A DNA stretch of 62,041 nt, filler included. It is 6 parts of 6 records of this genome, joined end to end, with 100 filler letters (N's around TTAATTAATTAA, not from the genome) between each part and the next. Parts side by side here need not be neighbours in the genome. Positions count along the whole stretch, not along the records: positions 41,865 to 62,041 come from DRR723986_2432; 5 more parts are not named here. One strand, written 5' to 3'. Within the stretch, counting starts at the first letter, position 1; every line of letters begins with the position of its first letter. Below, in pieces: positions 41,742 to 59,667 of the stretch. Under the pieces are notes generated by a model, which worked only from the letters and a program-made list of their open reading frames with translations, searched no databases and had not been told where the DNA came from. Made by a program: the position numbers and the translations under genes.

Positions 41742-41764
41742 GATCCAGCCCTTAGGGCTGGATC
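41742..41764. repeat. Terminal hairpin GATCCAGCCC-TTA-GGGCTGGATC at contig end
   Basis: Perfect 10-bp inverted repeat; same core as 1-25. Confidence 0.9.
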
Positions 41765-42990: not shown

Positions 42991-43898
42991 TGGCCTTTCC
43001 GAAGCAGGCTCGGTTGGTGGAAATGAGCCCCAGGGACGGGCTCCAGAATGAGCCCGGCGATGTGATCGCCACCGGGGTCAAAACCGGCCTGATCGACCGG
43101 CTGGCCGATTGCGGTCTCAGCCACATCGAGGCCGCCAGCTTCGTATCACCCAAATGGGTGCCGCAAATGGGCGACGCGGCCGCAGTGATGGCCGGCATCA
43201 CCCGTAAACCCGGCGTTCGCTACTCGGCCCTCACCCCGAACCTGAAAGGGTTCGAGGGCGCCCTGGCGGCCGGGGCCGACGAAGTGGCGGTATTCGGTGC
43301 AGCATCGGAGTCCTTCACCCAAAAGAACATCAACTGCACGATTGCTGAAAGCCTGGAGCGCTTTGCACCGGTGGTTGAAGAAGCCCGCAAACACGGCATT
43401 CCCGTGCGCGGTTACGTGTCTACCGTGATGGGCTGCCCGTACGAAGGCGATATCCAACCGGCACAAGTGGCCTCCGTGGCCAAGGCCCTGTACGACATGG
43501 GCTGCCACGAAATTTCCCTGGGCGACACCATCGGCGTGGGTACGCCACTGAAAGCCAAGCGCATGCTCGAAGCCGTGGCTGCCCATGTGCCCATGGACAA
43601 ACTGGCGGCGCATTTCCACGACACCTATGGCCAGGCCCTGGCCAACCTGTACGCAGTACTGGAAGAGGGCGTAAGCGTGATTGACGCCTCTGTGGCCGGT
43701 CTGGGCGGCTGCCCTTATGCCAAAGGGGCATCTGGCAACGTAGCCACCGAAGACGTGCTATACCTGCTTAACGGCCTGGGCATCGATACCGGCGTGGATC
43801 TGAACAAGCTGGTGAAAACCGGCGACTGGATCTGCGCGCAACTGAAACGTCATAACGGCTCTAAAGTGGGCCAGGCACTCGGGGGCCTGTGCCAGTAA
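42990..43898 (+). CDS. liuE: Hydroxymethylglutaryl-CoA lyase
   Basis: [29 protein letters not shown]. Confidence 0.96.
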
Positions 43899-43938: not shown

Positions 43939-45627
43939 ATGAGCAAGACTCTCCCAAGTTACACCAGTGGTATCGCAGAAAAGCCACTGCTGGGCATGAC
44001 CATCGGCGATATGCTGGACCGCACCGCCCAACAGTTTCCCGACAACGAGGCTCTGGTGTGCCTGCACCAGGACATTCGCTGGACTTACAAAGAGTTCGTC
44101 GACAAGGTGAACGAGGCGGCCCGGGCGTTCATGGCCATCGGCGTCAAGCGTGGCGACCGCGTGGGCATCTGGTCACCCAACCGTTACGAATGGACCGTTA
44201 CCCAGTTTGCGACCGCGAAAGTGGGCGCCATTCTGGTAAACATCAACCCGGCCTACGGTGTGCACGAGCTGAAGTACGCCATGAATCTGGCCGGCATCAG
44301 CGTTCTGGTTACCGCCGACAGCTTCAAAACCTCCAACTACCGGGAAATGATCTACGAGCTGGCCCCGGAACTGAAGCGCAGCGCACCCGGTAAACTCAAA
44401 GCTGACAACGTCCCCGATCTCCGGGCGGTCATTAACGTACACCCGGATAACCACGAGGGTATGTGGACCTGGCAGGATTTCCTGGGCTTTGCCGGCGACG
44501 TATCAGAGGCGGACCTTGCCAAGCGTCAGGATGAGCTGCAGTTCGACGACCCCATCAATATCCAGTTCACCTCCGGTACCACCGGCAACCCGAAAGGCGC
44601 CACGCTCACCCACCACAACATTCTGAACAACGGCTATTTTGTTGGTGAAAGCCAGCGCCTGACCGAGAACGACCGGCTGGTGATTCCTGTGCCGCTCTAC
44701 CATTGCTTCGGCATGGTGATGGGCAACCTGGGCTGCATCACCCATGGCACCGCCATGATCTACCCGAGCGAAGGCTTTGACCCGAAAACCGTACTCCAGG
44801 CCGTCCACCAGGAAAAAGCCACGGCCTTGTACGGTGTGCCCACCATGTTCATCGCCGAACTGGCCGACCCGGAGTTCGATAGCTACGACCTCTCCACCCT
44901 GCGCACCGGCATCATGGCGGGTTCCATCTGCCCCGCCGAAGTCATGAAGAAGGTCAACGGCAAAATGCACATGAAGGAAGTGCAGATTGCCTACGGCATG
45001 ACGGAAACCAGCCCGGTTTCCACCCAGACCAGTTCCCTCGACCCGTTCGAGAAGCAGGTCACTACCGTAGGCCGCACCCAGCCGCACTTGGAAACCAAGA
45101 TTGTCGACCCGGGCACCGGCAACGTCATGCCCCGAGGTGAGATTGGCGAACTGTGTACCCGCGGCTACAGCGTGATGCTGAAGTACTGGAACAACGAGGA
45201 AAAGACCCGCGAAGCCATCGACGATGCCGGCTGGATGCACACCGGCGACCTGGCGACCATGGACGAGGATGGTTACATCCAGATCGTGGGCCGCATCAAG
45301 GACATGGTGATCCGCGGTGGTGAAAACATCTACCCGAAAGAGATCGAAGAGTTCCTCTACACCCACCCAGCCATTGAAGAGGTGCAGGTAACCGGTATTC
45401 CGGACGAGAAGTACGGTGAAGAGCTGATTGCCTGGGTGAAACTGCGGCCCGATGCAGACCCGGTAACCGCGGAGGACCTGCAGGCCTTCTGCAAGGGCAA
45501 GATTGCCCACTTCAAGATTCCCAAAAACTACAAGTTTGTGGATGCATTCCCAATGACCGTGACCGGGAAGATCCAGAAGTTCAAGATGCGGGAAATCTCG
45601 ATTGAGGAAATGGGACTGAAGCAATAA
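43939..45627 (+). CDS. AMP-binding acyl-CoA synthetase
   Basis: [34 protein letters not shown]. Confidence 0.95.
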
Positions 45628-45687: not shown

Positions 45688-46953
45688 CTAATGCTTGCTC
45701 ATACGCTTGTACCGGTAGGGCTCACCCTCTTCATTCTGCAGTTGATAATCGTAGGCAGCCTGGAGCCCGGTTTCGTCTTCCGTCTCGTCCTCCGGTTCCT
45801 GCTCCAGATAGCGCGGGTATAGAGGTGAAAACATGGCCACGACAATGCCAATAGCGCAGAAGAACCCAAAGGCATCGGCATAGCCCACCTGCCCCACCAG
45901 CATACCGACCACAGGCGAGCCCGCTGCCTGTCCCAGAGACACCGCCATGAATGGCAGCACCGGCCCCATGGACAGCCGCCCCGGCAACAAACGAATCCCT
46001 GTCATCAGGTACAGCCCGGTCAGACTCATATAGGCCAGCCCGAACACCAGGGCTGAAAACCCTGCCAGCGGCAGGTTGTCTGGACTGGCAGCCAACAGAG
46101 CCAGGCTCGCCGCAAGCATCATCAACATCAATGCCTGGGTGATCGGCGGGTTATTGCGGTCTGCCAGATCGGCAACCACAGCACCACCCAGGCCAGCAAC
46201 CCCAACCCCCAGCCACAGCCAGGCGGTGGAATCGGAACTCATTTCACCCAGGTTCACCACCAGGTCGGGCGCGAAAATCCAGTAGGCCGCCGAGACAAAA
46301 CCCATCATGAAGCCAAAGATCGAGAGCCGTAACAGGCGCCACCACTGCAAGGCCGTGATCGCCGGCGGTGGCGCTGCGTTAGATGGCATCACCCGTGAAA
46401 CCGAAGGCAGGAAAAACCAGGTGGCAAACACCCCGATCAGGGCAAGAACGGCAAAAGACGCGTAGGTATAGCGCCAGGCCCCGGCCAGAAAAAGAACCGT
46501 GGGCACCGCGACCATCACACCCACGCTGGTGCCAGCATTCATCACCGAGCTGACCCGGCCATGCATCGAGCGCCGAACCAGTGCCTGCATGGCCGCTGTC
46601 AGGGCAGGCATCATCAGGCCCGTGCAGATACCACAGGCAAATACGCCCAGCCCCAGTGACAGGGCACCGGCCGACTGACTGATCAAAGCCAGTCCGACTA
46701 CCCCAAAAACGCCGGAGGCCATCGCCGTATTCCGGGCGCCGAGACGGTCGGCACACCAGGGCGCCACCACCGACGCCAGGGCAAAGCTGATCAGAGGGAG
46801 TGCACCGATGATACCGATCACATGGGGCGACAAAGACAGATCCGCACGAATGGGCGGAACAAACAGACCGAAGGCGAAGCGCGCAAGGCCGAAGCTGATC
46901 GCAATCAACCCCGCGCCCAGGAGCGCGAACGCTGTGCTGGAGGGAAACTTCAT
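45688..46953 (-). CDS. MFS transporter (YbfB/YjiJ-like)
   Basis: About 12 TM, FGLARFAFGLF, ADRLGAR; acidic C-terminal tail. Confidence 0.9.
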   Translation of the reverse strand: MKFPSSTAFALLGAGLIAISFGLARFAFGLFVPPIRADLSLSPHVIGIIGALPLISFALASVVAPWCADRLGARNTAMASGVFGVVGLALISQSAGALSLGLGVFACGICTGLMMPALTAAMQALVRRSMHGRVSSVMNAGTSVGVMVAVPTVLFLAGAWRYTYASFAVLALIGVFATWFFLPSVSRVMPSNAAPPPAITALQWWRLLRLSIFGFMMGFVSAAYWIFAPDLVVNLGEMSSDSTAWLWLGVGVAGLGGAVVADLADRNNPPITQALMLMMLAASLALLAASPDNLPLAGFSALVFGLAYMSLTGLYLMTGIRLLPGRLSMGPVLPFMAVSLGQAAGSPVVGMLVGQVGYADAFGFFCAIGIVVAMFSPLYPRYLEQEPEDETEDETGLQAAYDYQLQNEEGEPYRYKRMSKH

Positions 46954-47049
46954 ATCGGTCTGCCCTGCTCGCTGTCCATAGCGGTCAGCGTAGTCAGCAA
47001 AACCACCAGCATCAAGCCGGTCGCCGGAATCCCACCGCTCAGCCAGTCG

Positions 47050-47083
47050 TCGTCACACAACCGTAACACGCCTGAAGCACAAT
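47050..47083 (+). promoter_or_regulatory. Pho box plus -10 of the HAD gene
   Basis: TCGTCAC-acaa-CCGTAAC, 10 nt, CACAAT. Confidence 0.7.
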
Positions 47084-47084
47084 C

Positions 47085-47096
47085 TGGTGTATACCA
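47085..47096. promoter_or_regulatory. Putative PhnR (GntR/HutC-type) operator
   Basis: TGGTGTATACCA. Confidence 0.8.
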
Positions 47097-47108
47097 AAGG
47101 AGTTAACA

Positions 47109-47771
47109 ATGCTAGCCATTTTTGATCTGGACGAGACCCTGATTCAGGGGGACAGCTCTCAATTGTTCACCGAGTTCCTTCGGGCACAGGAGATCGAGCG
47201 CACTGACGATGCCCTCGATAAAGACCGGGATTTCATGTCGGACTACCGACAAGGCCGGCTGAACCTTCAGGCGTATATGGAATTCAGCCTGGCACCGCTG
47301 CAGGGCTGGCACCGGGAGCAACTCAACACCCTCGTCAGCCGGTTTATTGATCGTGTCATTGCGTCACGGGTGTTACCGACCGGCCGCGAGCGTGTTGCGT
47401 GGCATAAGGCCCAGGGGCACCGGGTGTTGATCATATCGGCTACCGGCGAACATCTGGTCAAACCCATTGCCCAGCATCTGGGCATTGAGGAAGGCATCGG
47501 CGTGGAAGTGGAATGGCGCGACGGAAGCCTGACCGGACAGATCGGGCCAAGGCGCCCCTTCCAGGAAGGTAAGGTGGCCGCCCTGCGCGAATGGCTGGGG
47601 AGGGACCAGGTAACACCGGAAAAGACTTGGTTCTATTCCGACTCGCATAACGATCTGCCGCTACTGGAACGAGTTGATTTCCCTGTTGCGGTCAACCCGG
47701 ACCCCAGGCTGAGACAACACGCCCAGAAACACGGCTGGCAGATCCTGACAGATTCTGCGACCCTGCCATGA
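47109..47771 (+). CDS. HAD-IB family hydrolase
   Basis: FDLDETL, ISAT, GK, YSDSHNDLPLL motifs. Confidence 0.92.
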   Translation: MLAIFDLDETLIQGDSSQLFTEFLRAQEIERTDDALDKDRDFMSDYRQGRLNLQAYMEFSLAPLQGWHREQLNTLVSRFIDRVIASRVLPTGRERVAWHKAQGHRVLIISATGEHLVKPIAQHLGIEEGIGVEVEWRDGSLTGQIGPRRPFQEGKVAALREWLGRDQVTPEKTWFYSDSHNDLPLLERVDFPVAVNPDPRLRQHAQKHGWQILTDSATLP

Positions 47772-47846: not shown

Positions 47847-48752
47847 TTATCCCAAAACCACAAGCAGCAAGCCGGCCAGTATGGTCAGAACCCCCACGAC
47901 CTTCGGCCCATGCAAGGCCTCGCCCAGGAAATACCAGCCCAGGGCTACGCCCATGGGAATACTGATTTGCCGGAACGCGACAACGTAACTCACATCGTCC
48001 GCATAGGCCATAGCCCAAACCACCAACGCGTAGGTGCCCAGAATCAGGATGCCAGCCGCCATGGTGCTGCGCCAATTTGCGGCCAGCTTCCTCAACAGTC
48101 GTCGCTCTTCGGATTGTAACCACAGACCAAGACTGAGCCAGCACAGCGCCGACCAGGCCTGGAGAATCACGAACACGAGTGCCACCTCGGCGTCCTGCGC
48201 CAGTCCCGCCAATAGCGCCCGCATCCGCTCGGTGGCCAGATCATCAACCATGGAGTAACCGGCCGTGCTGGCTGCGGCCAACAGCGCAAACAACGTGGCC
48301 AGGTTACGGTAGTTCGCCAGCGTGAAGTCGCGGAATCTCTGCATTGGCAGAACAATACAGCCAGCCACAATCAGACTGATCCCTATAACCGCAGCAGTGG
48401 TGATTGCCTCCGCGGTGCCAAGGAACAACGTGCCCACTAACAGGATGATCAGCGGCGAAGAACGGGCCAGCGGGTAAACCACCGACAATTCCCCGTGTCG
48501 GTATGCTGCCGCCAGACTGCTCAGGTAGGTAGCCTGAAAGAAACCGGTCGCGACCACCAGCCACCAGATCCCTGCGTCCAGTTCCGGCAACATCCGGTGG
48601 TAATACAGTAAGACTGGCAATGTCAGAAAGGCGCCCCAGAAGGTGCTATACCAGAAGAAAGCACCAGTGGGACTGACTTTTTTGCCAAACAGGTTCCAAC
48701 CCGCATGGGCCAGCGCCGACACCAGTACAATAACAATCGCGGTTGGTGTCAT
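47847..48752 (-). CDS. EamA/DMT family transporter
   Basis: About 10 TM, HAGWN, LSVVYPLAR, VVAFRQ.SI; starts 19 nt after the ABC permease stop. Confidence 0.9.
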   Translation of the reverse strand: MTPTAIVIVLVSALAHAGWNLFGKKVSPTGAFFWYSTFWGAFLTLPVLLYYHRMLPELDAGIWWLVVATGFFQATYLSSLAAAYRHGELSVVYPLARSSPLIILLVGTLFLGTAEAITTAAVIGISLIVAGCIVLPMQRFRDFTLANYRNLATLFALLAAASTAGYSMVDDLATERMRALLAGLAQDAEVALVFVILQAWSALCWLSLGLWLQSEERRLLRKLAANWRSTMAAGILILGTYALVVWAMAYADDVSYVVAFRQISIPMGVALGWYFLGEALHGPKVVGVLTILAGLLLVVLG

Positions 48753-48771
48753 AGGATCACTGCCGGGCCGT

Positions 48772-50502
48772 TCATTCGGTGCCCTGGCGCCAGGCCCGCG
48801 TAGACCGATCCACCCAGAAGCGCAGGCCACCCTGAATGAGCTTCGCGGCAGCACAAGTGGTGGTTATCAGGATCGCCATGGCGGCGGCGGGCGCAATGTC
48901 TCCCGCTTCATCCATGTTCAGTACCGCGACAGAGGCGAGTTGTGAATCGTGACCGTACAGGAAGACCACCGCAGACACCGTGGTCATGGCGTTAACGAAA
49001 AGGTAGAGCGCAACGTCAAGAATCGCCGGCAGACACAAGGGCAAGGTCACGGTGAACAGGACCCGCCAGCGAGACGCTTTCAGGGACTCGCCCACCGCTT
49101 CGAACTCCTGATCAAGCTGCTTTAACGCCGTTACCGCCGTCAGGTGGGACACCGCGTAAAAATGGCTCACGGTACACAGAATCAGAATAAACAGCGTGCC
49201 GTAGATCCCGTTAATCGGGTTATCCGGATGATTAAAGAAGAAAATATACGACAACCCAAGCACCAGGCCAGGTACCGCCAGCGGCAACAGCGACAGGAAC
49301 TGAAAAACACCGGTCAGCAGCCTCGGCTGGGGTGTGCGCTCCATCAGCCAGGCGTTGAAGAAAACCAGCAGTGTCCCGATTACCATGGTGCCCAGGGCCA
49401 TTTGCAGGCTATTGGTATAGGCGCCCCAGCCACCCCCGTCCATACGGCCGAACTGATAGTTGTTCAGGCTCAGTTCCAGATTGTACGGCCAGAAAGTCAC
49501 GAACGAGGCGTAGACAGCCATACCGATAATGGCCAGGATGAACAGGATCGTCGGCGCCAGCATAACAGCACCGATGACATCCCTCCTGTGGTCCCGGCGC
49601 GGCCGGTAAGGAACCGAACGCGCGGTAAAGCTTGCCGATTGCTTGCGCTGCACATAGCGGTCGGCCAGAAAGGCCAGCATGGCGGGCAGCAAAAGCAGCA
49701 CGCTGACGACGGCCCCCATTTCAAATTTCTGTTGCCCGATCACCTGTTTGTAGATGTCGGTAGCCAACACGTCGAATTGCCCGCCAATCACCTTGGGCAC
49801 CCCGAAGTCAGTGATCACCAGAGTGAAAACCACAAACGCGGCACTGACCAGTCCATAACGGGCACCTGGCACCGTCACGGTCCAGAAGGTGCGCCAGGGG
49901 CTCGCCTTCAACGCGGTTGCGGCCTCATAGTGCCGACCATCGGCATTGTCCATTGCCGTCAGCAGAATCATCAGTGCATGGGGAAACGTCCAGAAACAGG
50001 ACCCCATGATAATACCGATGGGGCCGTAGATTTCGGCACCGAACAACCAGCTTTTCAGGACACCCTGATTCCCGAACAGATACACCAGGCTGATCGCTGG
50101 CAACAGAGAGGGCGCCAGTATCGGCAGCACCAGAACCCCGCGGATCCAGCCGGTCATCGGCAGGCGAGTTCGTGTCAACGCCCAGGCCGCCATAAACGCC
50201 AGACCGACCACCACCAGGGTGCTCAGTCCCGCAACCCAGAGGGAGTTGAAAAACGCCGATTCGATGCCGCCGGAACTCAGATAATGGGCAAAGTTGTCGA
50301 GCCCGACAAAGTCACCGGCCTTGTTCTCCACACTCTTGGACAACAGGGTATAGAGCGGCGCCAGAACCAGAAGGCTCAAAACCGCGCAGCCGAGCACCAG
50401 CAGCAACGCAAACAGCCAGCGCCCGGTGACACGCTGCCGGAGTTCCGACAAGGCCCCGGCCCTGCGTGAGGGCGAGGTTAAAGGTACAGAGGAATCCATC
50501 AT
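48772..50502 (-). CDS. Putative 2-aminoethylphosphonate ABC transporter permease (two fused domains)
   Basis: APSLLPAISL, TDFGVPKVIGG, FVNAMTTVSAV; start could be 50532. Confidence 0.9.
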   Translation of the reverse strand: MMDSSVPLTSPSRRAGALSELRQRVTGRWLFALLLVLGCAVLSLLVLAPLYTLLSKSVENKAGDFVGLDNFAHYLSSGGIESAFFNSLWVAGLSTLVVVGLAFMAAWALTRTRLPMTGWIRGVLVLPILAPSLLPAISLVYLFGNQGVLKSWLFGAEIYGPIGIIMGSCFWTFPHALMILLTAMDNADGRHYEAATALKASPWRTFWTVTVPGARYGLVSAAFVVFTLVITDFGVPKVIGGQFDVLATDIYKQVIGQQKFEMGAVVSVLLLLPAMLAFLADRYVQRKQSASFTARSVPYRPRRDHRRDVIGAVMLAPTILFILAIIGMAVYASFVTFWPYNLELSLNNYQFGRMDGGGWGAYTNSLQMALGTMVIGTLLVFFNAWLMERTPQPRLLTGVFQFLSLLPLAVPGLVLGLSYIFFFNHPDNPINGIYGTLFILILCTVSHFYAVSHLTAVTALKQLDQEFEAVGESLKASRWRVLFTVTLPLCLPAILDVALYLFVNAMTTVSAVVFLYGHDSQLASVAVLNMDEAGDIAPAAAMAILITTTCAAAKLIQGGLRFWVDRSTRAWRQGTE

Positions 50503-50551
50503 GAAGGTCTTACCAGGGTGAAACGAGGGCATCGGGTTTTCGCGACCTCTT

Positions 50552-51622
50552 TCAGGCCGCGAAGCAATGCAAGGCATCAGACGGCAGGTTGAGACAGACT
50601 GCACCGCCCACCCGCAATTCCAGTTGTCGGGCAGAGCGCGGGTCTACGTCCACCACCAGGTCCAGTTCCACGCCATGCAGCCGGACGTGGGTGCGAATAA
50701 AGGCCCCCAGGTAATCCATCGCCTGGACCTGGCCTTCCCACTCACCGTCGCCCTGCGGCAGGAGATGAACATCCTCAGGCCGAATCGCCAGACGAATGCC
50801 GTCCGGCGTGGCCGGTAGCGGCCTGACCAGATCCAGCTCCCGATTGCCGAGGCGAACACGTTGCCCGTTCACTGGAGCGCTGTCGAAAAAGTTCATTGCC
50901 CCGATAAACGACGCCACAAACGCCGAAGCAGGCTGTTGGTAGATGTCCAGGGGTGTTCCCACCTGTTCAATCACCCCGTTATTCATAACCACCACTCGGT
51001 CTGCCATGGCCAGGGCTTCTTCCTGATCGTGGGTTACCATGATGGTGGTAACGCCCAGTTGCTTCTGCAGGCTGCGAATCTCGCTGCGAAGGTGGTGGCG
51101 AACTTTCGCATCCAGAGCTGAGAGTGGCTCATCGAGAAGCAGCAGGCCCGGGGATGGCGCCAAGGCTCGGGCAAGCGCCACCCGTTGCTGCTGGCCACCG
51201 GAAAGCTGCGCGGGATACTTGCGGGCGTGATCCTCCAGCCCGACCACGGCCAGAAGCTCGTCTACCCGATCACGAACCCGGGCCTTGGGCATACCGATGC
51301 TACGCAGTCCGTACGCCACATTGTCGGTTACCGTCATGTTCGGGAACAGCGCGTAGGACTGGAACACAATGCCGAAGTCACGATCCCGGGGCGGCTTTTG
51401 CGAGATATCGACATCGCCCTGTCGGAGCGTGCCGCAGCTCTGCTGTTCAAGCCCGGCAATAATGCGAAGCAGGGTCGTCTTGCCACATCCGGACGGCCCC
51501 AGAAAACACACCAGTTCACCGGGCTCAATGGTGAGATTGATATCCTTCAAGGCACAAAACTCGCCGAAGAACTTGTTTACGCCCCGGACTTCCAGACGAC
51601 TTCCCTGGGTATGCTGAATCAT
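50552..51622 (-). CDS. Putative 2-aminoethylphosphonate ABC transporter ATPase
   Basis: GPSGCGKT, LSGGQQQR, LLLDEP, C-terminal TOBE-like region. Confidence 0.92.
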   Translation of the reverse strand: MIQHTQGSRLEVRGVNKFFGEFCALKDINLTIEPGELVCFLGPSGCGKTTLLRIIAGLEQQSCGTLRQGDVDISQKPPRDRDFGIVFQSYALFPNMTVTDNVAYGLRSIGMPKARVRDRVDELLAVVGLEDHARKYPAQLSGGQQQRVALARALAPSPGLLLLDEPLSALDAKVRHHLRSEIRSLQKQLGVTTIMVTHDQEEALAMADRVVVMNNGVIEQVGTPLDIYQQPASAFVASFIGAMNFFDSAPVNGQRVRLGNRELDLVRPLPATPDGIRLAIRPEDVHLLPQGDGEWEGQVQAMDYLGAFIRTHVRLHGVELDLVVDVDPRSARQLELRVGGAVCLNLPSDALHCFAA

Positions 51623-51711
51623 GGTACCCCCTGCTTTTCTGATATCTGCCCGGGCACACCAGAACGGGTGCCCGGTCGCACAGGCCGGGGCTGGGCCCGG
51701 CTCCGAGCGGA

Positions 51712-52725
51712 TTACTTGGCTTCGGATTTGCCGTCGTAACGACGCGCCCACTCGGTCAGAATGGCTTCGCGATTACTGGCGGCCCAACCAAAATCGTTGT
51801 CGATAATCAGCGCTTCCGCGTTGGCGGGAAAATGTTCCACCGGCTGTGCCACACCTGGCATCGCTACAATGGCGTAGCCTTCGTTGTACATCTCCATGGC
51901 CTGACGGGTGATCGACCAGTCGACCAGAGTCTGGGCGGCTTCCAGTTTGTCGGTGCCGTCAACAATGGCGGTAGCTTCAACTTCCCAGCCCAGCCCTTCT
52001 TCCGGGAACACCAGCTCCAGAGGCGCGCCCTTCTCTTTCAGACGGGCACCACGGAAAGCGAAAGACACACCAATCGAGGTCTCACCCGAAGCAGCCATTT
52101 TGCAAGGCTTGGAGCCGGAGTGCGTATAGCGACTGATGTTCTGATGCAGGCCGTCCATGAACTCCCAGCCTTTGTCTTCGCCCATCAACTGGAGCCAGGC
52201 TGAAACGTCCAGAAAACCGGTTCCGGAAGAGTTCGGATTCGGCATCACAACATGGCCCCGATACACCGGCTTGGTCAGATCCTGCCAACTGGTGGGCATG
52301 GGCAAATTGTTCTTCTCAGCCTCGATGGTGTTGACGCATACCGCCGCCATCCAGGCATCCATGCCCACCCATGAGGGAGTCTCATCACGGTCACGGAACT
52401 TCGGCGACAACTTTTCCAGCCCTTCCGGCGCATAAGGCGTCAGCATGCCTTCGTTCTTCAGCAACAGCAGGCTGGTTCCCGCCAGCCCCCAAACGACATC
52501 CGCCTGCGGGTTTTCTTTCTCGGCCAGCAGTCGCGCGGTGATGACACCGGTAGAGTCGCGAACCCAGTTGATCTTGATGTCCGGGTGGTCTTCATTGAAT
52601 CGGGCGGCATACTTCTTGAGATCTTCCGCCTCAACCGCGGTGTACACGGTCAGTTCGGTCTGGGCGTTGGCGTTAACGGCCGCCATCAGGGCGGTCAGGG
52701 CCAGGGCTTTTTTCAGGTGTTTCAC
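51712..52725 (-). CDS. aepX: 2-aminoethylphosphonate ABC substrate-binding protein
   Basis: Signal peptide, LTVYTA, WVRDSTG, PNSSGTG, YTHSGSKPC; next to phnWX. Confidence 0.88.
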   Translation of the reverse strand: MKHLKKALALTALMAAVNANAQTELTVYTAVEAEDLKKYAARFNEDHPDIKINWVRDSTGVITARLLAEKENPQADVVWGLAGTSLLLLKNEGMLTPYAPEGLEKLSPKFRDRDETPSWVGMDAWMAAVCVNTIEAEKNNLPMPTSWQDLTKPVYRGHVVMPNPNSSGTGFLDVSAWLQLMGEDKGWEFMDGLHQNISRYTHSGSKPCKMAASGETSIGVSFAFRGARLKEKGAPLELVFPEEGLGWEVEATAIVDGTDKLEAAQTLVDWSITRQAMEMYNEGYAIVAMPGVAQPVEHFPANAEALIIDNDFGWAASNREAILTEWARRYDGKSEAK

Positions 52726-52764
52726 GCTACTCTCCTTTTACGGCATCAGTTCGGTTAGGCTTTC

Positions 52765-52776
52765 TGGTCTATACCA
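52765..52776. promoter_or_regulatory. Putative PhnR operator
   Basis: (TC)TGGTCTATACCA(GA). Confidence 0.85.
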
Positions 52777-52791: not shown

Positions 52792-52836
52792 ACCTTAGGG
52801 ACATTTGATTGCAAAGACGTGACAGCTCGATGACGT
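52792..52836 (-). promoter_or_regulatory. Pho box plus -10 of the aepX operon
   Basis: Minus strand ACGTCAT-cgag-CTGTCAC-gtct-TTGCAAT, 10 nt, TAAGGT. Confidence 0.8.
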
Positions 52837-52851: not shown

Positions 52852-53679
52852 TCAGGGGCGCTCTCCCGCTGCCAGACGGCTCTCGATATCGCGGATAACC
52901 CCTGGCAGGTCCTGTATCGAATCGATGACATAATGGGCTGCCGATCTCGCCATCACCTGGCGACCACGGGCCAGCAACGCTTCGCGATCGTTCTCCGGAA
53001 GGGCGTAAAACTGAGCTTCACTCAATCCGACTGAATTACCGGAGGCCACTACGGCCACCGTCCACATACCCGCATTCAGACCTTCCTCAATACCCGTCCC
53101 TGTATCGTCTACTTTGACGCAGGCCTGCACTGCGCCAATGCCCAGTTCGAGCGCGTTTTTCAGGCTCATGTGTGGTGCCGGTCTACCGGCCGGCACTTCT
53201 GTCGCCACAACCACGCTTTCCGGTATAAATCCCTGATCCGCGAGCCCCGGCAGCATAACGTTCACCATGTCTCGGCTATATCCGGTGTTCACCCCCAACC
53301 TGATGCCTTTTTCACGAAGCAGATCCTGAAGCGCCAGGGCACCCGGAATCAGTGTTGCCCGTTCCGCAATCGCCGCGGTCTGAAGGGGCAGAAATGCCTC
53401 ATAGAGGCGATCGACATCAACGGCCTCCGGCGCCTTACCATGAGTCTCCAGCCATTGGCTCCGAATGCGGGGCATCGCAAGCAAACAACGGATATGCTCA
53501 CGCTTTTCGGTCCCCATGGGCTCCCGGGCTTCGGTTTCGGAGACATCAATGCCCTCGTTCCGGAACAACTGGAGAAAGGCCTGAATCGGTGCCAGTGAAC
53601 CGAAATCCACGCAGGTTCCGGCAAGGTCCATAATCACCGCTTGCAGAGGACCGGTGTAACGACGGGTGTAACTGTGCAT
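52852..53679 (-). CDS. phnX: Phosphonoacetaldehyde hydrolase (phosphonatase)
   Basis: DLAGTCVDFGS, PMGTEKREHI (Schiff-base Lys), GRPAP, VKVDDT, GLNAGMW. Confidence 0.95.
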   Translation of the reverse strand: MHSYTRRYTGPLQAVIMDLAGTCVDFGSLAPIQAFLQLFRNEGIDVSETEAREPMGTEKREHIRCLLAMPRIRSQWLETHGKAPEAVDVDRLYEAFLPLQTAAIAERATLIPGALALQDLLREKGIRLGVNTGYSRDMVNVMLPGLADQGFIPESVVVATEVPAGRPAPHMSLKNALELGIGAVQACVKVDDTGTGIEEGLNAGMWTVAVVASGNSVGLSEAQFYALPENDREALLARGRQVMARSAAHYVIDSIQDLPGVIRDIESRLAAGERP

Positions 53680-53710
53680 AACGCTTCTTCCTTTTGCGAT
53701 CAGAGTGAGA

Positions 53711-54862
53711 TCATTGGTTTTCGAGATTGTCTGGCGCAGCAGCCGGAGGGGGTACCGGCACCGACATTCCCAGCGACTGACAGGCATCGGCAATCGCCGC
53801 CACCACTGCATCAATCTGCGGATCATGAAGTTGGCCAATACAGCCAAGCCGGAAGCTCTCCGCGACCGTCAGCTTGCCGGGATAGATCAGGAAACCTCGG
53901 GCCTTGATGGCCTCGTAAAAACGGGGAAAATCGAAATCCGGGCTGTCTGGAGACAGGAAAGTCGTAATGATTGGAGACAGCCATTCATCGGCCAGCAGAG
54001 TCTGGAACCCTAGCTCGCGAAGGCCCGCCACCAGTCGGTCTCGGTTTCGGCTGTAGCGGGCAAGACGACCGGCCACACCGCCTTCGGCCTCGTGTTCTCG
54101 CAGGGCCTGCAAAAAGGCGGCGACCACGTGGGTCGGCGGCGTATAGCGCCACTGCCCCGTTCTTTCCATGTACCGCCATTGGTCGTACAGATCCAGCGAC
54201 AGGCTGTGGCACTGCCCTTCGGACTCAGACAGCAGGGTCTTGTCCACTATGGCAAAACCGAAGCCCGGCACACCTTCAAAGCACTTGTTGGCGGACGAAA
54301 CCAGCGCCGCACAGGGTAACTCCGCCACGTTGACCGGCAACGCGCCAAACGCGCTCATGCTGTCGATAATCAGGCGCTTGCCAGCCTTTTCACAGACCTC
54401 GGCGATTTCAGGAATCGGGTTGAGAATGCCCGAACTGGTTTCGCAGTGAACGACCACCACCTGATCAATCTCCGGGTGCTGTCGAAGTGTCCGTGCCACC
54501 TCGTCACCCCGCGGCGGATGGTAATCTCCTTTGTCGATGGCCAGGCATCGACGGCCCAAGCGATCAAGAATTTTGCTGATTCGCTGTCCATAGGCTCCGT
54601 TCATCAGTACCAGCGTGGTGCTGTTCCGGGGAACCAGCGTGCCCAACGTGGCTTCCACCGCAAAGGTACCGCTACCCTGCATGGGAACGCACACATGACT
54701 ATCCTGGCCACCGGCCACACGCAGCAGACGCGCACACACCTCTGCGGTGAGCTCATTAAAGTCGTTATCCCAGGAGCCCCAGTCGTGCAACATGGCCTGC
54801 TTCACAGACAGACTGGTGGTCAGCGGACCGGGGGTCAGTAAATACGGATCGTTCGGGGTCAT
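53711..54862 (-). CDS. phnW: 2-aminoethylphosphonate--pyruvate transaminase
   Basis: [45 protein letters not shown]. Confidence 0.97.
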
Positions 54863-54879
54863 TGGAGTCTCCAACGGAA

Positions 54880-56112
54880 TTAGCCAGTGCGTTTGCGGGC
54901 TCGTGCCGCAGCACAGCGGTGGATAAAATCAGGATCAAAGGGATCAATGGCGCCAAACCGGTCCAGGCGAAACGGCTCGGAAGTGACGAAGGTCGGCTGG
55001 CCGGCTATCAGTTCGCTGATGAATCGACCAATGCCTCCCGACATACCAATGCCGGCACCGGAACAGCCGGTTGCAGCGATAAAACCCTGAATGCCAGGCA
55101 TGGGGCCCAGCAGGTAGAAGCCGTCCGGGGTATAGCTGGAAACGTTGCTGACGTAGTGGGCCAACCGGAGTTCGTCCAGCAGGGGAAGCTGAGACCGCAG
55201 TGACGCGTACCCGTCCTCAAGGGCATGCTCACCCGCTGGATCGGTATCGAAGCGGAAGCCCTGCAGACTCTCGGGCAGGACCGCCGGGTCTGCAACCACG
55301 GCCTGTGCTTCCCGAAGACCGAACAGCAAACCGCCCACGTCTGGCCGCGCATAGGCGCCACTGTCGGGCAATATCGTCATCGGGCCATGGGCAGGAATAC
55401 GAGCGTCAGGTGCCGATATCCAGTAATGACTGCGCACCGGCGCCATGCCAAGGTGAACACCCACTTGCCTGGCCAGAGCCGTACTCCAGGGGCCGGCGGC
55501 ATCAACCACCAGGCCGGCCGAGAGCACCTCACCATGCCCGAGGCGAACACCCGTTACCCGGCCACCCTGCATAAGCAGGTCGCTGACACTTTGCTTCAGA
55601 CGAAACCGAACACCATGGCGGCGCCCCTCAGCGGCATAAGCCATGCACAACGAATAAGGATCAATATAGCCATCGCCCGGCAACCAGAGGGCGGCAGTAT
55701 CGGGTGTCAAATCAAGCCACGGAGCCAGTTGCATGGCATCCTGCACGGCAATCGCTTTTGCAGTCACGCCGGCCTCTTTTGCTCGCCGGGCTGTCTCTTC
55801 GAGCTGGCGCAGCCCGTCTGGTTGCGCAGACACCTGCAGACTGCCAACGCTTCTGAGCGGTAAGGGCTCACCGCTGCTCTGCCCCATTTCCTCAATAGCG
55901 CGAAAGGTTTCCATGGCCAAAGCCGTCAAGGCCGAATGCGGACGGATACGGGTAAGAAGCGCAGCCGCGTAGCTGGTGGTCTGCTCTCCCAGACCGTGTC
56001 GCTCAACCACGGTGACGCTGAGGCCGGGTAAACGACTGAGATATCGGGCAATCGCGCATCCGAGAATGCCGCCTCCAATAATGACGACATCCGGATGATG
56101 GGGTGTGGGCAT
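54880..56112 (-). CDS. FAD-dependent amine oxidoreductase (DAO/sarcosine oxidase superfamily; Pbf-like)
   Basis: [25 protein letters not shown]; first gene of the phnWX operon. Confidence 0.88.
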
Positions 56113-56130
56113 GGTAGCTCCTCGCTCATC

Positions 56131-56142
56131 TGGTATAGACCA
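56131..56142. promoter_or_regulatory. Putative PhnR operator
   Basis: (C)TGGTATAGACCA(G). Confidence 0.85.
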
Positions 56143-56186
56143 GTTTGACGAGGAACTGTGACGGTTTTATGAAGACCCGATGACAG
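56142..56186 (-). promoter_or_regulatory. Pho box plus -10 of the oxidoreductase-phnWX operon
   Basis: Minus strand CTGTCAT-cggg-TCTTCAT-aaaa-CCGTCAC, 10 nt, CAAACT. Confidence 0.82.
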
Positions 56187-56210: not shown

Positions 56211-56939
56211 TCAGCTCACTTCAACCTGAATACTCAAGGCATCGTGCAGCCAGAACTCTTCATCGAACTCGATAAAGCCTCCCTGACCGTCCTGACTGCA
56301 ACGGGTGACATAGAGCCCTGCGGTACCAGCCGTTACACCGATGGCACTCGCCTGAGGATCCACCAACGCCGTGGGATACATTTCAATTCGCTTACCCTTC
56401 AGTTCCACGCCATATTGCTCCCGGAGAAGTTTCCAGAGCGAGCGGTTGAAATCGTATGTCTCAATGCCCGGCAAGCGGGTCGCATTCAGGTAAATGTTCT
56501 CAACCAGCACTGGCCGGCCATCAATCTGACGGCGCCGACGAAGCCAGATCACCGGATCGCCGACAGCCAGGCCGGTTTTTGTGGCAAGCCAAGCATTGGC
56601 CTCGGTCGCGGTGACATCCAGGGTTTCGGTTTCGGGCACTCGGCCCTGAGCGGTAACGTTGTCTGAGAAACTGTAATCGTGCGTTGGTTTGTAGATCAGC
56701 CGGGGCGGGGAAACAAACCAGCCACGGCGATTGGAGCGGTAGATCTTTCCCTCTGCTTCCAGTTGCGCGAGCGCGAGACGGGTGGTGACGCGGGTAGTGC
56801 CGAATTGTTCGGCCAGGATTCGCTCGGAGGGTAATCGGGTATTCGGGGTCAGCACTCCCTTGTCGATCTGCCCCGCTAACTGATCTCGCACCCTCAGATA
56901 AAGCGGCAGGGTACCCTCCGCAAACGCTTGCTGCTGCAT
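56211..56939 (-). CDS. phnR: GntR/UTRA phosphonate utilisation regulator
   Basis: LPSER, TTRVT.R.AL, IYRSNRRGWFVSPPRL, EFDEEFW.HDA. Confidence 0.9.
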   Translation of the reverse strand: MQQQAFAEGTLPLYLRVRDQLAGQIDKGVLTPNTRLPSERILAEQFGTTRVTTRLALAQLEAEGKIYRSNRRGWFVSPPRLIYKPTHDYSFSDNVTAQGRVPETETLDVTATEANAWLATKTGLAVGDPVIWLRRRRQIDGRPVLVENIYLNATRLPGIETYDFNRSLWKLLREQYGVELKGKRIEMYPTALVDPQASAIGVTAGTAGLYVTRCSQDGQGGFIEFDEEFWLHDALSIQVEVS

Positions 56940-56969: not shown

Positions 56970-57003
56970 ACGCTAAGCCGGCACTGTGACGACAGTATGA
57001 CAG
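56970..57003 (-). promoter_or_regulatory. Pho box plus -10 of phnR
   Basis: Minus strand CTGTCAT-actg-TCGTCAC, 10 nt, TAGCGT. Confidence 0.78.
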
Positions 57004-57043: not shown

Positions 57044-57084
57044 AAAACAAGAAACCCCAGGCCACATCGGCGGCCCGGGGTTTC
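57044..57084 (-). terminator. Intrinsic terminator after the phosphoesterase gene
   Basis: GAAACCCC(G)GGCC...GGCC(T)GGGGTTTC followed by TTGTTTT on the minus strand. Confidence 0.75.
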
Positions 57085-57115: not shown

Positions 57116-59545
57116 TCAGTACAGCAAACTCAGCGACACGTTATCAAAGTAAACGTCGTTGTCGTTGCCGGCCTTGCGCTCACCGCCAATGTGCACCACC
57201 ACGCTGCGGACACCGGCCGGTAAAAAGCCCTCTATTGACTGGGTTTCCCAGCTCTTGATGGAGGTACTGGTACGCTCCGGCGACTGGTTCCACGCCACCG
57301 GCTGATCGTTCGCATCGCGCAACTCAATCCTCAATTCCGGTATATCATCCGCCGACCAGGTGGTCATTTGCGCCGAGAGATCCAGATACACCTTACCGGC
57401 GTCGATATCCTGCCCGTAGGACGAAATATCCACCTGCTGGAACGCCGAATCCGTGCAGCAGTCGCCAGGCAGTCCCTGGCCGAACCCTCGGCCCGCGAAA
57501 TAGTAGTCGCCCTCGACCGCACCAAAGCCCCCGTTGTTGTTGGCCGTGATGGCACTGACCAGTCCGCTCGACAGCGTCCAGGCCGACAGGTCTCCGGCTT
57601 CTGCATCACCATTGGTCAGCAGGTTCGGGGTGCGGGTGCCGGCCAGGCTGAAACTGTAGCCCTCACTCCAGGACGACCAGTTCATCTGCGAGTCTCTCAC
57701 CCGGGCCCGCCAGTAATAGGTGGTGCCGGGTTTCAGCCCCAGAGTGGGCCTTGGCTGGCCGCCGTAGGCATCGTAGGAGGAAACGTGCGTATTCTGAGAG
57801 GCAAACCGTTTGTTCCAGCGGTAGTAGTCATCCCCCCCCGGACGGACGGTCTTCAGGCTTAACAGCTCCGACAGATTCAGGCGGAAGATATCGGCGCCCT
57901 GCTGGGTATCAATGGCTTCATAGCCCTGATATTCATCACCGCCCACCTGAGTGGCTTCATCATAGAACAGATTGTGGCGCCGGGTTTCGTTACCCCATAC
58001 GTCAAACACGACCCCCTCGAACTGCTCATTCTCGGAGATCTGCCATTGCACTTCGTGCACCTGCTCAGGCGCACCCACGTTCACCGCCAGCTGAATATCC
58101 GTGGCCGGCAACTCACCCGTTCCCGCGGTTGCCTGCGGCAGGTTGTCATTGCGTTTACTGGCGAAGGTTACCTCATCCACCACCTCAAATTCGGTATCAC
58201 CGTCATACCCACCTTTTTTCCGCTGCAACGTCACCGAGGCGTCCGCTCCAAAACGGTACGTCAGCACGCTGTAACCAAACTCGCTACGGCTGACCTCAAA
58301 GGTATCGTAGTCGCTGATCTGATTGTTCTGATGATCGGCGTTGTCGAGTGGTTCAATGTAGCCTGAGGCACTGGCTGCGTTGAGCCACAGGTGCGGCGTG
58401 TTTAACGACTGCCCGCGGGAATAGGAATGAGTGTGCCCGAAGAAATGGCCGGTGACCGCACCGGTGCGGTCGCTGTATTTTTCCAGCTCAGACACCATTT
58501 CGCAGGAACCAATGCTTTCCCCCACATTCCACATCTCAGACAGGCAGCCGTGATGGAACATGCCCATCACGAAGGTCTTCTGCTGGATTTCGGCATCAAG
58601 CAGCGTTTCCCGCAGCCATTGGCGCTGAACCGCCAAGGTCTCGCGATTGAAACTGCCGTGGGCGCCCGAAATCGGGTAGCTGTCCAGCCCAATCAACCGA
58701 AGGTCCAGATAATCGATGAAATACCAGTGATCCTCATAGCCCACCGATCCGTTTTCCGGTGGCGACATGTAAGTTCGATACAGCTCCAGCTCCGCATTCG
58801 AGTAGTAGTCATGGTTACCCGGAACCGTAATCAGTGGCACGTAGGGTGTGATATCTGCCATTCGCCCGAACAGCTGGTCCCGCCAGTTGGAACGGTTGCC
58901 GCCGGTTTGTACCACGTCCCCGGAGATAGTGATGGCAGCAATGTTCTCGGCACAGGTCTCGGGCTGAGTACCGTTGCATTCCTCGGTCATGAAACCATCT
59001 GTCACCACGTTGTTCAGCACCACCTCGTAGATCTCCCGATCCAGCTGGGTGTCACTGATCGCAATGAACCGCGCCTGCTCAACATCGTCGCTCGCATCTG
59101 GCCAGGTTTTGAAGGCAAAGGCCTGTGTCACCCGCCCCACTCCGCCTGCGTCGTTCGTCAGCACGTAGTATTCGTATAAACGATTTGACTCGAGCCCCGA
59201 CATGACCGCCCGATACACCAGGCCATCCTCGGAGTGAACGCCAGCGTCAATCTTCTGAAACTCGTCCGAACTGCCGAAAGGACGCACCCACACCTGCGGC
59301 TGCGTGTTCTCGGTCTCAAACATCACCGTCATGGTATCGCTACCCGGTGCCTGCAAATACGGCCTGACAATAAATTCGGGGGGCTGCTCTGCCGAAGGCG
59401 CCGGCACCACCACAGGGTCTGGGTTGCCCGGCTGCTCAGTGCCAGGGGCCGGAGCTGCGTCAGAACTCGAACTGGAATCGTTACAACCTGTCAGCAGCAG
59501 GGCCGAGGCACCGGCTGCCAGCAGTATGCGGTAGGGGGAAGACAT
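57116..59545 (-). CDS. Lipoprotein metallophosphoesterase (purple-acid-phosphatase-like) with FN3-like and putative C-terminal carbohydrate-binding domains
   Basis: Lipobox LLTG-C21; PYLQ..MTVMFET N-domain; SDTQ, GDVV, GNHD, FHH, GHTH; YYWRARVRD...WSSWS; NLLTNGDAE...YFDNVSL jelly-roll pattern. Confidence 0.88.
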   Translation of the reverse strand: MSSPYRILLAAGASALLLTGCNDSSSSSDAAPAPGTEQPGNPDPVVVPAPSAEQPPEFIVRPYLQAPGSDTMTVMFETENTQPQVWVRPFGSSDEFQKIDAGVHSEDGLVYRAVMSGLESNRLYEYYVLTNDAGGVGRVTQAFAFKTWPDASDDVEQARFIAISDTQLDREIYEVVLNNVVTDGFMTEECNGTQPETCAENIAAITISGDVVQTGGNRSNWRDQLFGRMADITPYVPLITVPGNHDYYSNAELELYRTYMSPPENGSVGYEDHWYFIDYLDLRLIGLDSYPISGAHGSFNRETLAVQRQWLRETLLDAEIQQKTFVMGMFHHGCLSEMWNVGESIGSCEMVSELEKYSDRTGAVTGHFFGHTHSYSRGQSLNTPHLWLNAASASGYIEPLDNADHQNNQISDYDTFEVSRSEFGYSVLTYRFGADASVTLQRKKGGYDGDTEFEVVDEVTFASKRNDNLPQATAGTGELPATDIQLAVNVGAPEQVHEVQWQISENEQFEGVVFDVWGNETRRHNLFYDEATQVGGDEYQGYEAIDTQQGADIFRLNLSELLSLKTVRPGGDDYYRWNKRFASQNTHVSSYDAYGGQPRPTLGLKPGTTYYWRARVRDSQMNWSSWSEGYSFSLAGTRTPNLLTNGDAEAGDLSAWTLSSGLVSAITANNNGGFGAVEGDYYFAGRGFGQGLPGDCCTDSAFQQVDISSYGQDIDAGKVYLDLSAQMTTWSADDIPELRIELRDANDQPVAWNQSPERTSTSIKSWETQSIEGFLPAGVRSVVVHIGGERKAGNDNDVYFDNVSLSLLY

Positions 59546-59560
59546 GAAACTCTCCTTTAT

Positions 59561-59588
59561 TGGTATATACCAGTTTTGGTACCTACCA
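59561..59588. promoter_or_regulatory. Tandem putative PhnR operators
   Basis: TGGTATATACCA (59561-59572) and TGGTACCTACCA (59577-59588). Confidence 0.85.
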
Positions 59589-59654
59589 AAATAGAGGGAG
59601 AAAGTGTCAGTCCTGTGATTATTGTGTTGCGGTCACCTTAAAGATTCATGACAA
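59588..59654 (-). promoter_or_regulatory. Pho-box array (11-bp phase) plus -10 of the phosphoesterase gene
   Basis: Minus strand TTGTCAT-gaat-CTTTAAG-gtga-CCGCAAC-acaa-TAATCAC-agga-CTGACAC, 10 nt, TATTTT; inner half-sites are degenerate. Confidence 0.65.
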
Positions 59655-59655
59655 C

Positions 59656-59667
59656 TGGTACATACCA
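59656..59667. promoter_or_regulatory. Third putative PhnR operator upstream of the phosphoesterase
   Basis: (C)TGGTACATACCA(G). Confidence 0.82.

Follow-up and report, generated by a model that had tools for sequence, protein, structure and literature searches.

Analysis of a 62,041-nucleotide stretch of DNA (here called the window; parts of six records of one genome joined end to end), together with the loci of related proteins, suggests that the gene at 57116..59545 on the minus strand (stop codon included) encodes an envelope hydrolase that would be repressed by a PhnR-type regulator and would release 2-aminoethylphosphonate (AEP) from esterified conjugates; we give this reading a probability of about one in two. 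The product, an 809-residue lipoprotein metallophosphoesterase that we call P0001, had been singled out as a candidate AEP-ester hydrolase in a first-pass annotation made from the DNA letters; its operators, its fold and a partial co-occurrence with phosphonate genes speak for that idea, and the majority of homologues, which are unlinked to such genes, speak against it. The closest homologue of P0001 is a JGI/Logan cluster representative at 99% identity, and the protein is 96% identical to one of Marinobacter excellens HL-55, the window being Marinobacter-like.

The promoter region of the P0001 gene carries the densest set of putative regulatory sites in the window. A scan of the whole window for the motif TGGTANNTACCA with up to one mismatch returned seven matches, against a mean of 0.53 in 100 shuffled versions, none of which gave seven. 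Three of the seven are perfect TGGTAnnTACCA palindromes 5' of the start codon (ATG at 59545): a proximal operator, O1, at 59561..59572, which ends 3 nucleotides before a Shine-Dalgarno-like AAGGAG (59552..59557, minus strand, 6 nucleotides from the ATG); O2 at 59577..59588, 16 bp from O1 centre to centre; and a distal operator, O3, at 59656..59667, the centre of which lies ~116 nucleotides 5' of the ATG. Single sites with one mismatch each stand before a FAD oxidase gene (56131), before the gene for an AepX-type binding protein (52765) and between a divergently transcribed MFS/HAD-IB pair (47085), so that the motif is common to the P0001 promoter and three others of the locus, and the P0001 promoter has, as had been claimed, the most operators; the seventh match, also with one mismatch, lies at 41478. 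Because of this distribution of the motif we presume that PhnR, encoded next to P0001, is the protein that binds the palindromes. Mycobacterial PhnF may bind an identical palindrome; a literature search with the operator string turned up only an unrelated human-genetics paper. A hairpin resembling an intrinsic terminator (57051..57084, minus strand; 15 pairs, 10 of them G-C, with a T-rich tail) follows 32 nucleotides past the stop codon, and the P0001 gene therefore appears to be a transcription unit of its own. The tighter control that three operators would provide would make sense for an enzyme that is expensive to make and export and that its product would induce.

A second kind of site was seen in neighbouring promoters. 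Pho-box-like repeats (CTGTCAT-n4-CTGTCAT, three mismatches each, minus strand) at 56986-57003, 56169-56186 and 52819-52836 precede phnR, the FAD oxidase-phnWX unit and aepX, respectively, and account for three of the five such matches in the window, a total not significantly above the 3.97 expected; none with three or fewer mismatches was found 5' of the P0001 gene. The catabolic and uptake genes may thus be under dual Pho and PhnR control and the esterase under PhnR alone.

The neighbouring genes are, by family, genes of AEP use. The P0001 gene lies directly upstream of, and on the same strand as, phnR, the FAD oxidase gene, phnW, phnX, aepXVW and a gene for a phn-associated EamA protein; these neighbours match the families of the known PhnR/PhnWX/AepXVW locus, and the operator motif is found at every promoter of the locus. 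Published AEP loci, in the available sections of the papers describing them, list transporters, PhnW/X/A/Y, PbfA to PbfF and FAD oxidases, and a P0001-type esterase is what distinguishes the locus in the window.

When one genome was scanned for each species, 593 relatives came to light, of which the best 79 loci were taken with 10 kb on each side (cited below by L number); the 1185 neighbour proteins were clustered and the cluster representatives annotated with Pfam and NCBIfam. A core phosphonate marker (PhnW, PhnX or PhnX-like, PbfA, TIGR03364, TIGR03329, PhnZ-like HD, AepX/W or phn-type LysR) lies within 10 kb of the homologue in 14 of the 79 loci, and 12 of these, L060 included, hold an enzyme of carbon-phosphorus (C-P) catabolism. 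Three of the 14 depend on a single marker that is non-enzymatic or borderline (AepX in L007, LysR in L025, membership of the TIGR03329 cluster in L060). PhnW and PhnX both occur within 10 kb in five loci, namely those of Marinobacter (L001, L002, L008), Chitinibacter (L023) and Paraglaciecola (L037). The marker-linked loci fall in at least four distant clades; in a quick FastTree phylogeny of the catalytic core (77 rows, 392 columns, with some long-branch warnings) the linked contexts sit in separate, deeply divided clades and do not form a single one. The co-occurrence that the first-pass annotation had proposed as a check is real but partial, recurring across clades in a minority of loci. 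Two of the linked loci are particularly telling: in Chitinibacter, the homologue (1083 amino acids) is followed by a phn-type LysR, AepX, a PhnZ-like HD oxygenase, AepV/W, PhnW, PhnX and a TIGR03329 oxidoreductase, and in Paraglaciecola it adjoins a TonB-dependent receptor, with PhnX, PhnW, HD and TIGR03329 genes around it.

The operators, too, are conserved beyond the window. An operator stands directly 5' of the homologue in 12 of the 79 loci (Marinobacter L001-L009 and L011, Salinibius L020 and Paraglaciecola L037), that is, in all 10 Marinobacter loci, against a background of 74 matches in 1,481,277 bp overall. In six of these Marinobacter loci (L003-L006, L009, L011) neither phnW nor phnX lies within 10 kb, and one to three operators are still present; L007 retains solely an AepX-type binding protein and a HAD-IB gene. 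A divergent PhnR-like regulator is kept in L004, L005, L006, L009 and L011, that of L004 scoring 183 bits on TIGR03337. The arrangement of the sites is conserved as well: the 79-bp centre-to-centre distance between O3 and O2 recurs in L002, L004, L005, L006 and L011 and the 16-bp distance between O2 and O1 in L002-L006, both being identical in the window, L002, L004, L005 and L006. This constancy suggests that repression depends on a set geometry of the sites, perhaps on a loop; the outer operators are 95 bp (about nine helical turns) apart, a distance that would allow looping. The Marinobacter proteins across which the operator spacing is fixed are only 71-82% identical.

Two further features of the Marinobacter loci were noted. 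Marinobacter zhejiangensis (L004:9974-14608) has two tandem paralogues, of 824 amino acids and of 643 amino acids without the lectin domain, with an extra perfect operator between them at 12539 and genes for the PhnR-like regulator and for YjdM (PhnA zinc-ribbon) upstream. In L003-L006, genes for two patatin-like lipases and one flavin monooxygenase lie ~1.5-6 kb upstream of the homologue, with phnWX not nearby; this may point to a lipid substrate or be synteny without a functional link.

The architecture of P0001 is consistent with an enzyme that works outside the cytoplasm, and much of what had been read from the sequence at first sight was confirmed (all coordinates on the minus strand). 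The open reading frame of 809 codons begins with a signal peptide and a lipobox, LLLTG-C21 (residues 1-21, 59483..59545), which fits the pattern [LVI][ASTVI][GAS]C, and alignments show lipoboxes of the L(A/S/T)GC type in gammaproteobacterial homologues also. The residue at position +2 after the lipobox cysteine is Asn, which under the +2 rule of Escherichia coli is not a residue for retention in the inner membrane. P0001 is predicted to be an envelope-anchored lipoprotein, most likely in the outer membrane. A low-complexity tether rich in Ser, Pro and Ala (residues 22-57, 59374..59482; pLDDT below 50 at residues 19-38) leads to an N-terminal beta domain of the type seen in purple acid phosphatases (PAPs) (residues ~58-147, 59105..59374), which is all-beta in the structure model and matches Pur_ac_phosph_N (PF16656, residues 63-147, 41 bits, cutoff 30, E = 3e-10). 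Next comes a calcineurin-like binuclear metallophosphoesterase domain (residues ~157-470, 58136..59077), assigned by Metallophos (PF00149, residues 159-375, 44.5 bits, cutoff 21.5), Foldseek and the family profile. It is followed by a beta region of Ig/FN3-like character into which a helical stretch is inserted (residues ~471-635, 57641..58135); the evidence for the FN3-like segment that had been claimed here consists of a weak match to Ig_Rha78A_N (PF25788, residues 600-634, 24 bits, under the cutoff of 27.4) and of the all-beta character of residues ~416-634 in the model. The C-terminal domain (residues 636-809, 57119..57640), which contains the expected NLLTNGDAE...YFDNVSLSL, is a lectin-like beta-sandwich by Foldseek, Atlas clusters and the model. 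This AlphaFold2 model was built from 37 family sequences and has a mean pLDDT of 89 and a pTM of 0.83. Searches with P0001 itself matched no family in NCBIfam (best E = 0.076) and nothing meaningful in the PDB by single sequence (best E = 0.25), its relatives in the PDB being found only by family profile and fold search; a BFVD search for viral folds gave only generic PAP/PhoD-like matches and tail-fibre beta-domain matches.

The active site combines a familiar framework with an unusual first motif. The metal motifs of calcineurin-like phosphoesterases are DxH, GD, GNH[DE], H and GHxH; P0001 has D165-T-Q167, as had been noticed in the first-pass annotation, followed by G209-D210, G243-N244-H245-D, H331-H332 and G370-H371-T-H373, with motif V continuing as G370H371xH373-x-Y375-S-R377-G-Q-S380. 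In an alignment of 77 rows from Pseudomonadota, Bacteroidota, Myxococcota, Acidobacteriota, Thermodesulfobacteriota and Actinomycetota, D165, Q167, D210, N244, H245, H331, H371 and H373 are invariant, as are Y375, R377, S380, E337 and W339, and the motif residues were likewise invariant in a smaller alignment of 37 rows. Motif I is thus DxQ throughout, the Asp being kept and the canonical His replaced by Gln, with motifs II-V intact. The Tyr of the GDxxY motif, a ligand of Fe(III), defines the purple chromophore of PAPs; the equivalent position, 213, is Gln in P0001 and in the alignment is Q in 25 rows, E in 22, N in 10, A in 8 and D in 4 (69 of 77), Tyr not being among these five commonest residues. 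Since the PAP Tyr is not among the commonest residues at its position and DxQ is present in every row, these proteins are not standard PAPs, and sequence comparison marks them as an uncharacterised subfamily of PAP-like metallophosphoesterases. P0001 differs from the known PAP-like enzymes in its DxQ site, in its architecture and in its regulon. The family is small: a HMMER pass over 1.84 billion cluster representatives found 1255 clusters at E <= 1e-3, 309 at 1e-10 and 116 at 1e-30, and source annotations label the homologues merely metallophosphoesterase or purple acid phosphatase.

Comparison with solved structures places the catalytic half, with its alpha/beta-sandwich fold, in the calcineurin-like superfamily, nearest to plant purple acid phosphatases and diesterases and to PhoD, with Foldseek probabilities of 1.00 to PAPs, PhoD and pig/human PAP. 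The best Foldseek match is lupin PPD1 (3zk4, E = 2e-19), and the wheat purple acid phytase (6gja/6git), kidney bean PAP (1kbp) and PhoD (2yeq) also match. The plant enzymes (Foldseek E = 2e-19 to 3e-16, profile E = 1.4e-14 to 9e-8) have the same order of an FN3-like N-domain and a calcineurin-like domain and share the ligands D, D, N, H, H and H, whereas P0001 lacks the GDxxY Tyr, has DxQ as motif I, is a bacterial lipoprotein, is only 15-17% identical to them and has ~340 extra residues that form the Ig-like and lectin-like domains. PhoD of Bacillus subtilis, a secreted phosphodiesterase/phosphatase, shares the PAP-like fold (Foldseek E = 1.3e-14) but is 12% identical, with other accessory domains and another regulon; P0001 has no PhoD match in Pfam (PF09423/PF16655), PhoD_N reaching only E = 0.014 on the middle region, and PhoD_N does occur in some distant members of the family. 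In a comparison of the family profile with the PDB, PAPs came out best, followed by SMPDL3A (5ebb, E = 3e-8) and the phosphohydrolase 2dxl/3d03 (E = 6e-5), the last of which we take for GpdQ of Enterobacter, a glycerophosphodiesterase with activity on phosphonate monoesters as well. SMPDL3A and 2dxl/3d03 are calcineurin-like diesterases that cut a head-group phosphoryl ester, the kind of chemistry proposed for P0001, and match the profile over motifs II and III-V, but the similarity is remote, both have DxH as motif I, and neither has the PAP N-domain or the lectin domain. Hydrolysis of phosphonate monoesters, the type of reaction proposed here for P0001, is carried out by PMH/PehA of the alkaline-phosphatase superfamily, which we do not know to be tied to AEP clusters; their fold is unrelated, P0001 having no Pfam match to Sulfatase, Phosphodiest or Metalloenzyme.

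For the C-terminal domain, the nearest folds are sugar-binding beta-sandwiches: Foldseek aligned it with the sugar-binding domains of Fbs1/Fbs2/FBG3 (3wso, 8zuh, 1umh, 2e31; TMt 0.51-0.69) and with the carbohydrate-binding module (CBM) entry 2c26, and its nearest Atlas clusters are FBA (0.90), DUF642, CBM_4_9 and GalBD-like, which are leads only. Accessory modules of homologues identified in Pfam point in a similar direction, with two CBM_5_12 and a Laminin_G_3 (ConA-like) module in the Chitinibacter protein, CBM_5_12 and hemopexin in that of L016 and PKD in that of Paraglaciecola. Judging from these similarities, the C-terminal domain of P0001 may bind glycan.

A second setting for the enzyme was found in marine Flavobacteriaceae, six loci of which (L044, L049, L063, L064, L069, L074) hold a short form of ~530 amino acids without the lectin domain within a SusC/SusD locus. 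The gene order there is PbfA and an NPP-type phosphodiesterase with PA14, then directly the DxQ enzyme and directly after it a protein of 360 amino acids. PbfA scores 716 bits on NF049939 against a cutoff of 525; PhnX-like genes occur in L049, L063 and L064, the first and last of which also have TIGR03364 genes, and DUF5690 genes lie nearby. Leeuwenhoekiella marinoflava is one isolate with a SusC/SusD-PbfA locus. The 360-residue neighbour, a member of the alkaline-phosphatase superfamily, is constant with the enzyme and present in 12 loci; its identity with PhnA was considered and rejected, because it has no NCBIfam or PDB sequence match. The gene content of these SusC/SusD-PbfA loci makes them look like phosphonate-conjugate utilisation loci, of which we found no description in the open-access literature. 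A paper on Maribacter forsetii does mention, in its available sections, an expressed SusC/D pair beside an alkaline phosphatase, a FAD oxidoreductase and a phosphonatase-like hydrolase, and leaves it uninterpreted (PMC11345257). Three of the six PbfA-type loci lie at L044:60-11903, L049:2152-15835 and L063:490-12600, and the six combine three predicted extracytoplasmic phosphoesterases, namely the NPP enzyme with PA14, the DxQ metallophosphoesterase and the 360-residue alkaline-phosphatase-superfamily protein.

Taken together, these findings suggest the following scheme. PhnR would repress the P0001 gene through the three palindromic operators, and free AEP would lift the repression. The enzyme would cut the P-O ester between AEP, and probably also N-methyl or hydroxy forms of it, and a macromolecule or pieces of one; the bond would be a phosphonate monoester, chemically similar to a phosphodiester, and diesterase-capable members of the fold (GpdQ, PAPs) can handle phosphonate monoesters. 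The lectin-like C-terminal domain would hold the substrate, for which we consider a glycan more likely than a lipid because of the accessory domains and the TonB and SusC/SusD partners. AepX would bind the AEP set free in this way, AepVW would carry it into the cell, and PhnW, PhnX and the FAD oxidase would break it down. We infer the bond cleaved, the side of the cell faced and the nature of the carrier alike. More broadly, and with confidence somewhat short of even, we propose a dedicated family of extracytoplasmic, phosphonate-releasing, DxQ-type PAP-like esterases, of which P0001 would be the first recognisable member and which would unlock macromolecule-bound AEP, N-methyl-AEP and hydroxy-AEP for the PhnWX and PbfA pathways, from Marinobacter to Chitinibacter and the SusC/SusD loci of Flavobacteriaceae.

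Such an enzyme would fill a gap in the pathway, which otherwise accepts only free phosphonate, so that use of the bound pool needs a release step. According to the available sections of PMC8316502, phosphonates get built into lipids and glycans, most AEP of biological origin being esterified to them, and AepX binds free AEP with high specificity (Kd 23 nM). The candidate is a single gene with its own terminator-like hairpin, a presumed repressor with its operator set and, in at least four clades, a place next to C-P-cleaving enzymes. If the proposal is correct, the gene would be a marker for the use of bound phosphonate in metagenomes, phosphonate-targeting SusC/SusD loci would be defined in Flavobacteriia, and a metallophosphoesterase active site would be recognised in which an invariant Gln replaces the canonical His or Tyr ligand. 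We found no prior description of a P0001-type enzyme in AEP catabolism, nor of any AEP-ester or phosphonolipid hydrolase acting there, in the open-access literature, in agreement with the first-pass annotation, which knew of no characterised enzyme with these domains in AEP clusters. The word 'phosphoesterase' does not occur in the available text of four papers from the group that defined PbfA to PbfF (PMC8154272, PMC10574752, PMC12366243, PMC10590968), and among them 'phosphodiesterase' is used in PMC10574752 alone, where it refers to PhnP and the 2H family.

Several observations weigh against the reading of P0001 as a PhnR-repressed AEP-ester hydrolase. No core marker lies within 10 kb in 65 of the 79 loci, among them the Photobacterium, Vibrio, Motilimonas, Cyclobacterium, Saprospiraceae and Oceanococcaceae clades; the majority of homologues are thus unlinked to phosphonate genes, a finding that the first-pass annotation had named as telling against its own proposal. 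A PhoD gene lies near the homologue in five loci (four of the Oceanococcaceae group and one metagenome-assembled genome of Mycobacteriales), which fits general phosphate scavenging. Binding of the palindromes by PhnR is itself a presumption, and the PhnR of the window, for which phnR (TIGR03337) is the best NCBIfam family, scores 249 bits, under the cutoff of 296.75; the GntR regulator kept in five Marinobacter loci is only 35-38% identical to it, and its effector may therefore differ. A sigma-70 consensus scan upstream of the P0001 gene, including the stretches between the operators, found no promoter. Residues 636-809 have no Pfam match at E <= 1 and thus match no named CBM family, and the Atlas scores of this domain (0.85-0.90) are leads only. 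Finally, six loci that are sisters of the PbfA-type ones (L040, L046, L050, L052, L060, L075) keep the enzyme and its 360-residue partner, but PbfA and PhnX are replaced by a glutamine-synthetase-like protein, an iron-containing alcohol dehydrogenase, a peptidase C26 and an aldehyde dehydrogenase (in L040, for example, at 124-12609). Sub-cutoff NCBIfam matches hint that the replacement set encodes a gamma-glutamylation-type pathway for amines or amino alcohols. The replacement suggests that the substrate of the family need not be a phosphonate; on the amino-alcohol reading, the common denominator would be an esterase for aminoethyl-phosphoryl or -phosphonyl head groups that is not strictly phosphonate-specific.

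Four alternatives to an AEP-releasing esterase were considered. An unlikely one, though the best supported, is that P0001 is a general phosphate-scavenging phosphatase or phosphodiesterase of the PAP/PhoD kind, acid or alkaline, acting on common phosphate esters, for example in nucleic acids, in the head groups of phospholipids or in sugar phosphates, and that its proximity to AEP genes reflects a shared theme of phosphorus acquisition. The fold nearest to PAPs and PhoD, the many loci away from core markers, the PhoD genes in five loci, an alkaline phosphatase gene in three of the Flavobacteriaceae loci (L046, L060, L063) and the bare annotation of the homologues all agree with it. Against it, the promoter has three PhnR-type operators and no Pho-box-like repeat, and the phnR, oxidase and aepX promoters have one such repeat each; the Marinobacter gene keeps its operators even where phnWX is elsewhere, homologues from at least four widely separated clades lie near genes of C-P catabolism, the PAP Tyr is missing and motif I is DxQ in every row of the alignment.

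It is also conceivable, but rather more doubtful still, that the enzyme is a broader head-group diesterase that removes 2-aminoethyl-phosphoryl and -phosphonyl decorations alike, both phosphoethanolamine diesters and AEP esters, from glycans or lipids, with the downstream pathway differing by lineage. Phosphonate monoesters and phosphodiesters are chemically alike, and in Flavobacteriaceae the enzyme and its 360-residue neighbour stay constant as the flanking catabolic genes switch between the set with PbfA, PhnX-like and TIGR03364 proteins and the set with the glutamine-synthetase-like protein, iron-containing alcohol dehydrogenase, C26 hydrolase and aldehyde dehydrogenase. The second set is, however, read as an amino-alcohol pathway from matches below the NCBIfam cutoffs, and all of the co-regulated genes in the window point to AEP.

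Less probable again is a phosphonolipid hydrolase of the phospholipase C or sphingomyelinase C type, which would take AEP from ceramide-AEP or diacylglyceryl-AEP and use its C-terminal sandwich to dock on membranes. The profile match to acid-sphingomyelinase-like phosphodiesterase 3a indicates that the fold can do sphingomyelinase-type chemistry, and the operon includes a Pbf-type oxidase, the characterised relatives of which, PbfB, PbfC and PbfD of AEP clusters, oxidise N-methyl-AEP, a compound that is lipid-bound in marine invertebrates (PMC10590968, in its available sections). The patatin-like lipase genes of L003-L006 would also fit, but they are not adjacent to the homologue and have no operator, and a lipid substrate is harder to reconcile with accessory modules that bind carbohydrate or chitin (CBM_5_12, ConA-like), with TonB-dependent and SusC/SusD partners typical of oligosaccharide uptake and with a C-terminal domain resembling sugar-binding domains. 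That the change of the motif I His to Gln, together with the missing Tyr at the PAP position, has left a catalytically dead protein that only captures phosphonate-bearing ligands is highly improbable, since the invariance in 77 of 77 rows of the other metal ligands, the GNH[DE] His, the Gln itself and the YSRGQS/E337/W339 signature indicates selection on an active site.

The remaining genes of the locus, all on the minus strand, were assigned as follows. The presumed palindrome binder, a phnR-type GntR/HutC regulator (Pfam GntR and UTRA; TIGR03337), is encoded at 56211..56939. The operator at 56131-56142 opens a unit at 52852..56142 that comprises genes for a Pbf-type FAD oxidoreductase of the DAO family (54880-56112; Pfam/NCBIfam), phnW (53711-54874, 554 bits) and phnX (52852-53847, 328 bits), both over their NCBIfam cutoffs. 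The operator at 52765-52776 opens the transporter unit at 47847..52776, which contains phnS2 of the AepX type (51712-52725, TIGR03261, 540 bits), phnT2 of the AepXVW type (50552-51751, TIGR03265, 495 bits) and phnU2 of the AepXVW type (48772-50604, TIGR03262, 788 bits), all over cutoff, and the gene for the phn-associated EamA protein (47847-48854, TIGR03340, 191 bits, under cutoff). Beyond these, the divergent pair around the operator at 47085 (45688-47771) consists of an MFS transporter gene on the minus strand and a HAD-IB hydrolase gene on the plus strand; the best NCBIfam match of the latter is histidinol-phosphatase, under cutoff, and a HAD-IB gene accompanies the locus in L001, L002, L007, L008 and L037.

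The genes at 41866-43898 and 43939-45627, near the operator-like site at 41478, were considered as members of the system and rejected, because they encode a leucine-catabolism-type carboxylase, an HMG-CoA lyase and an acyl-CoA ligase. Elsewhere in the window, positions 1-6000 are low in GC (45-46%, against 55-62% elsewhere) and include an open reading frame of 1107 amino acids (1922-5245) with no Pfam match at E <= 1e-6; this stretch may be a foreign insertion. A second stretch of lower GC (48% at 40-42 kb) holds, within 40531-42990, a Fic-domain gene that precedes the open reading frame at 41866-42990, the product of which matches only the C-terminal part (from model position ~289 on) of biotin carboxylase-type carboxylases and a biotinyl domain, which may mean that the carboxylase gene is truncated or has been interrupted.

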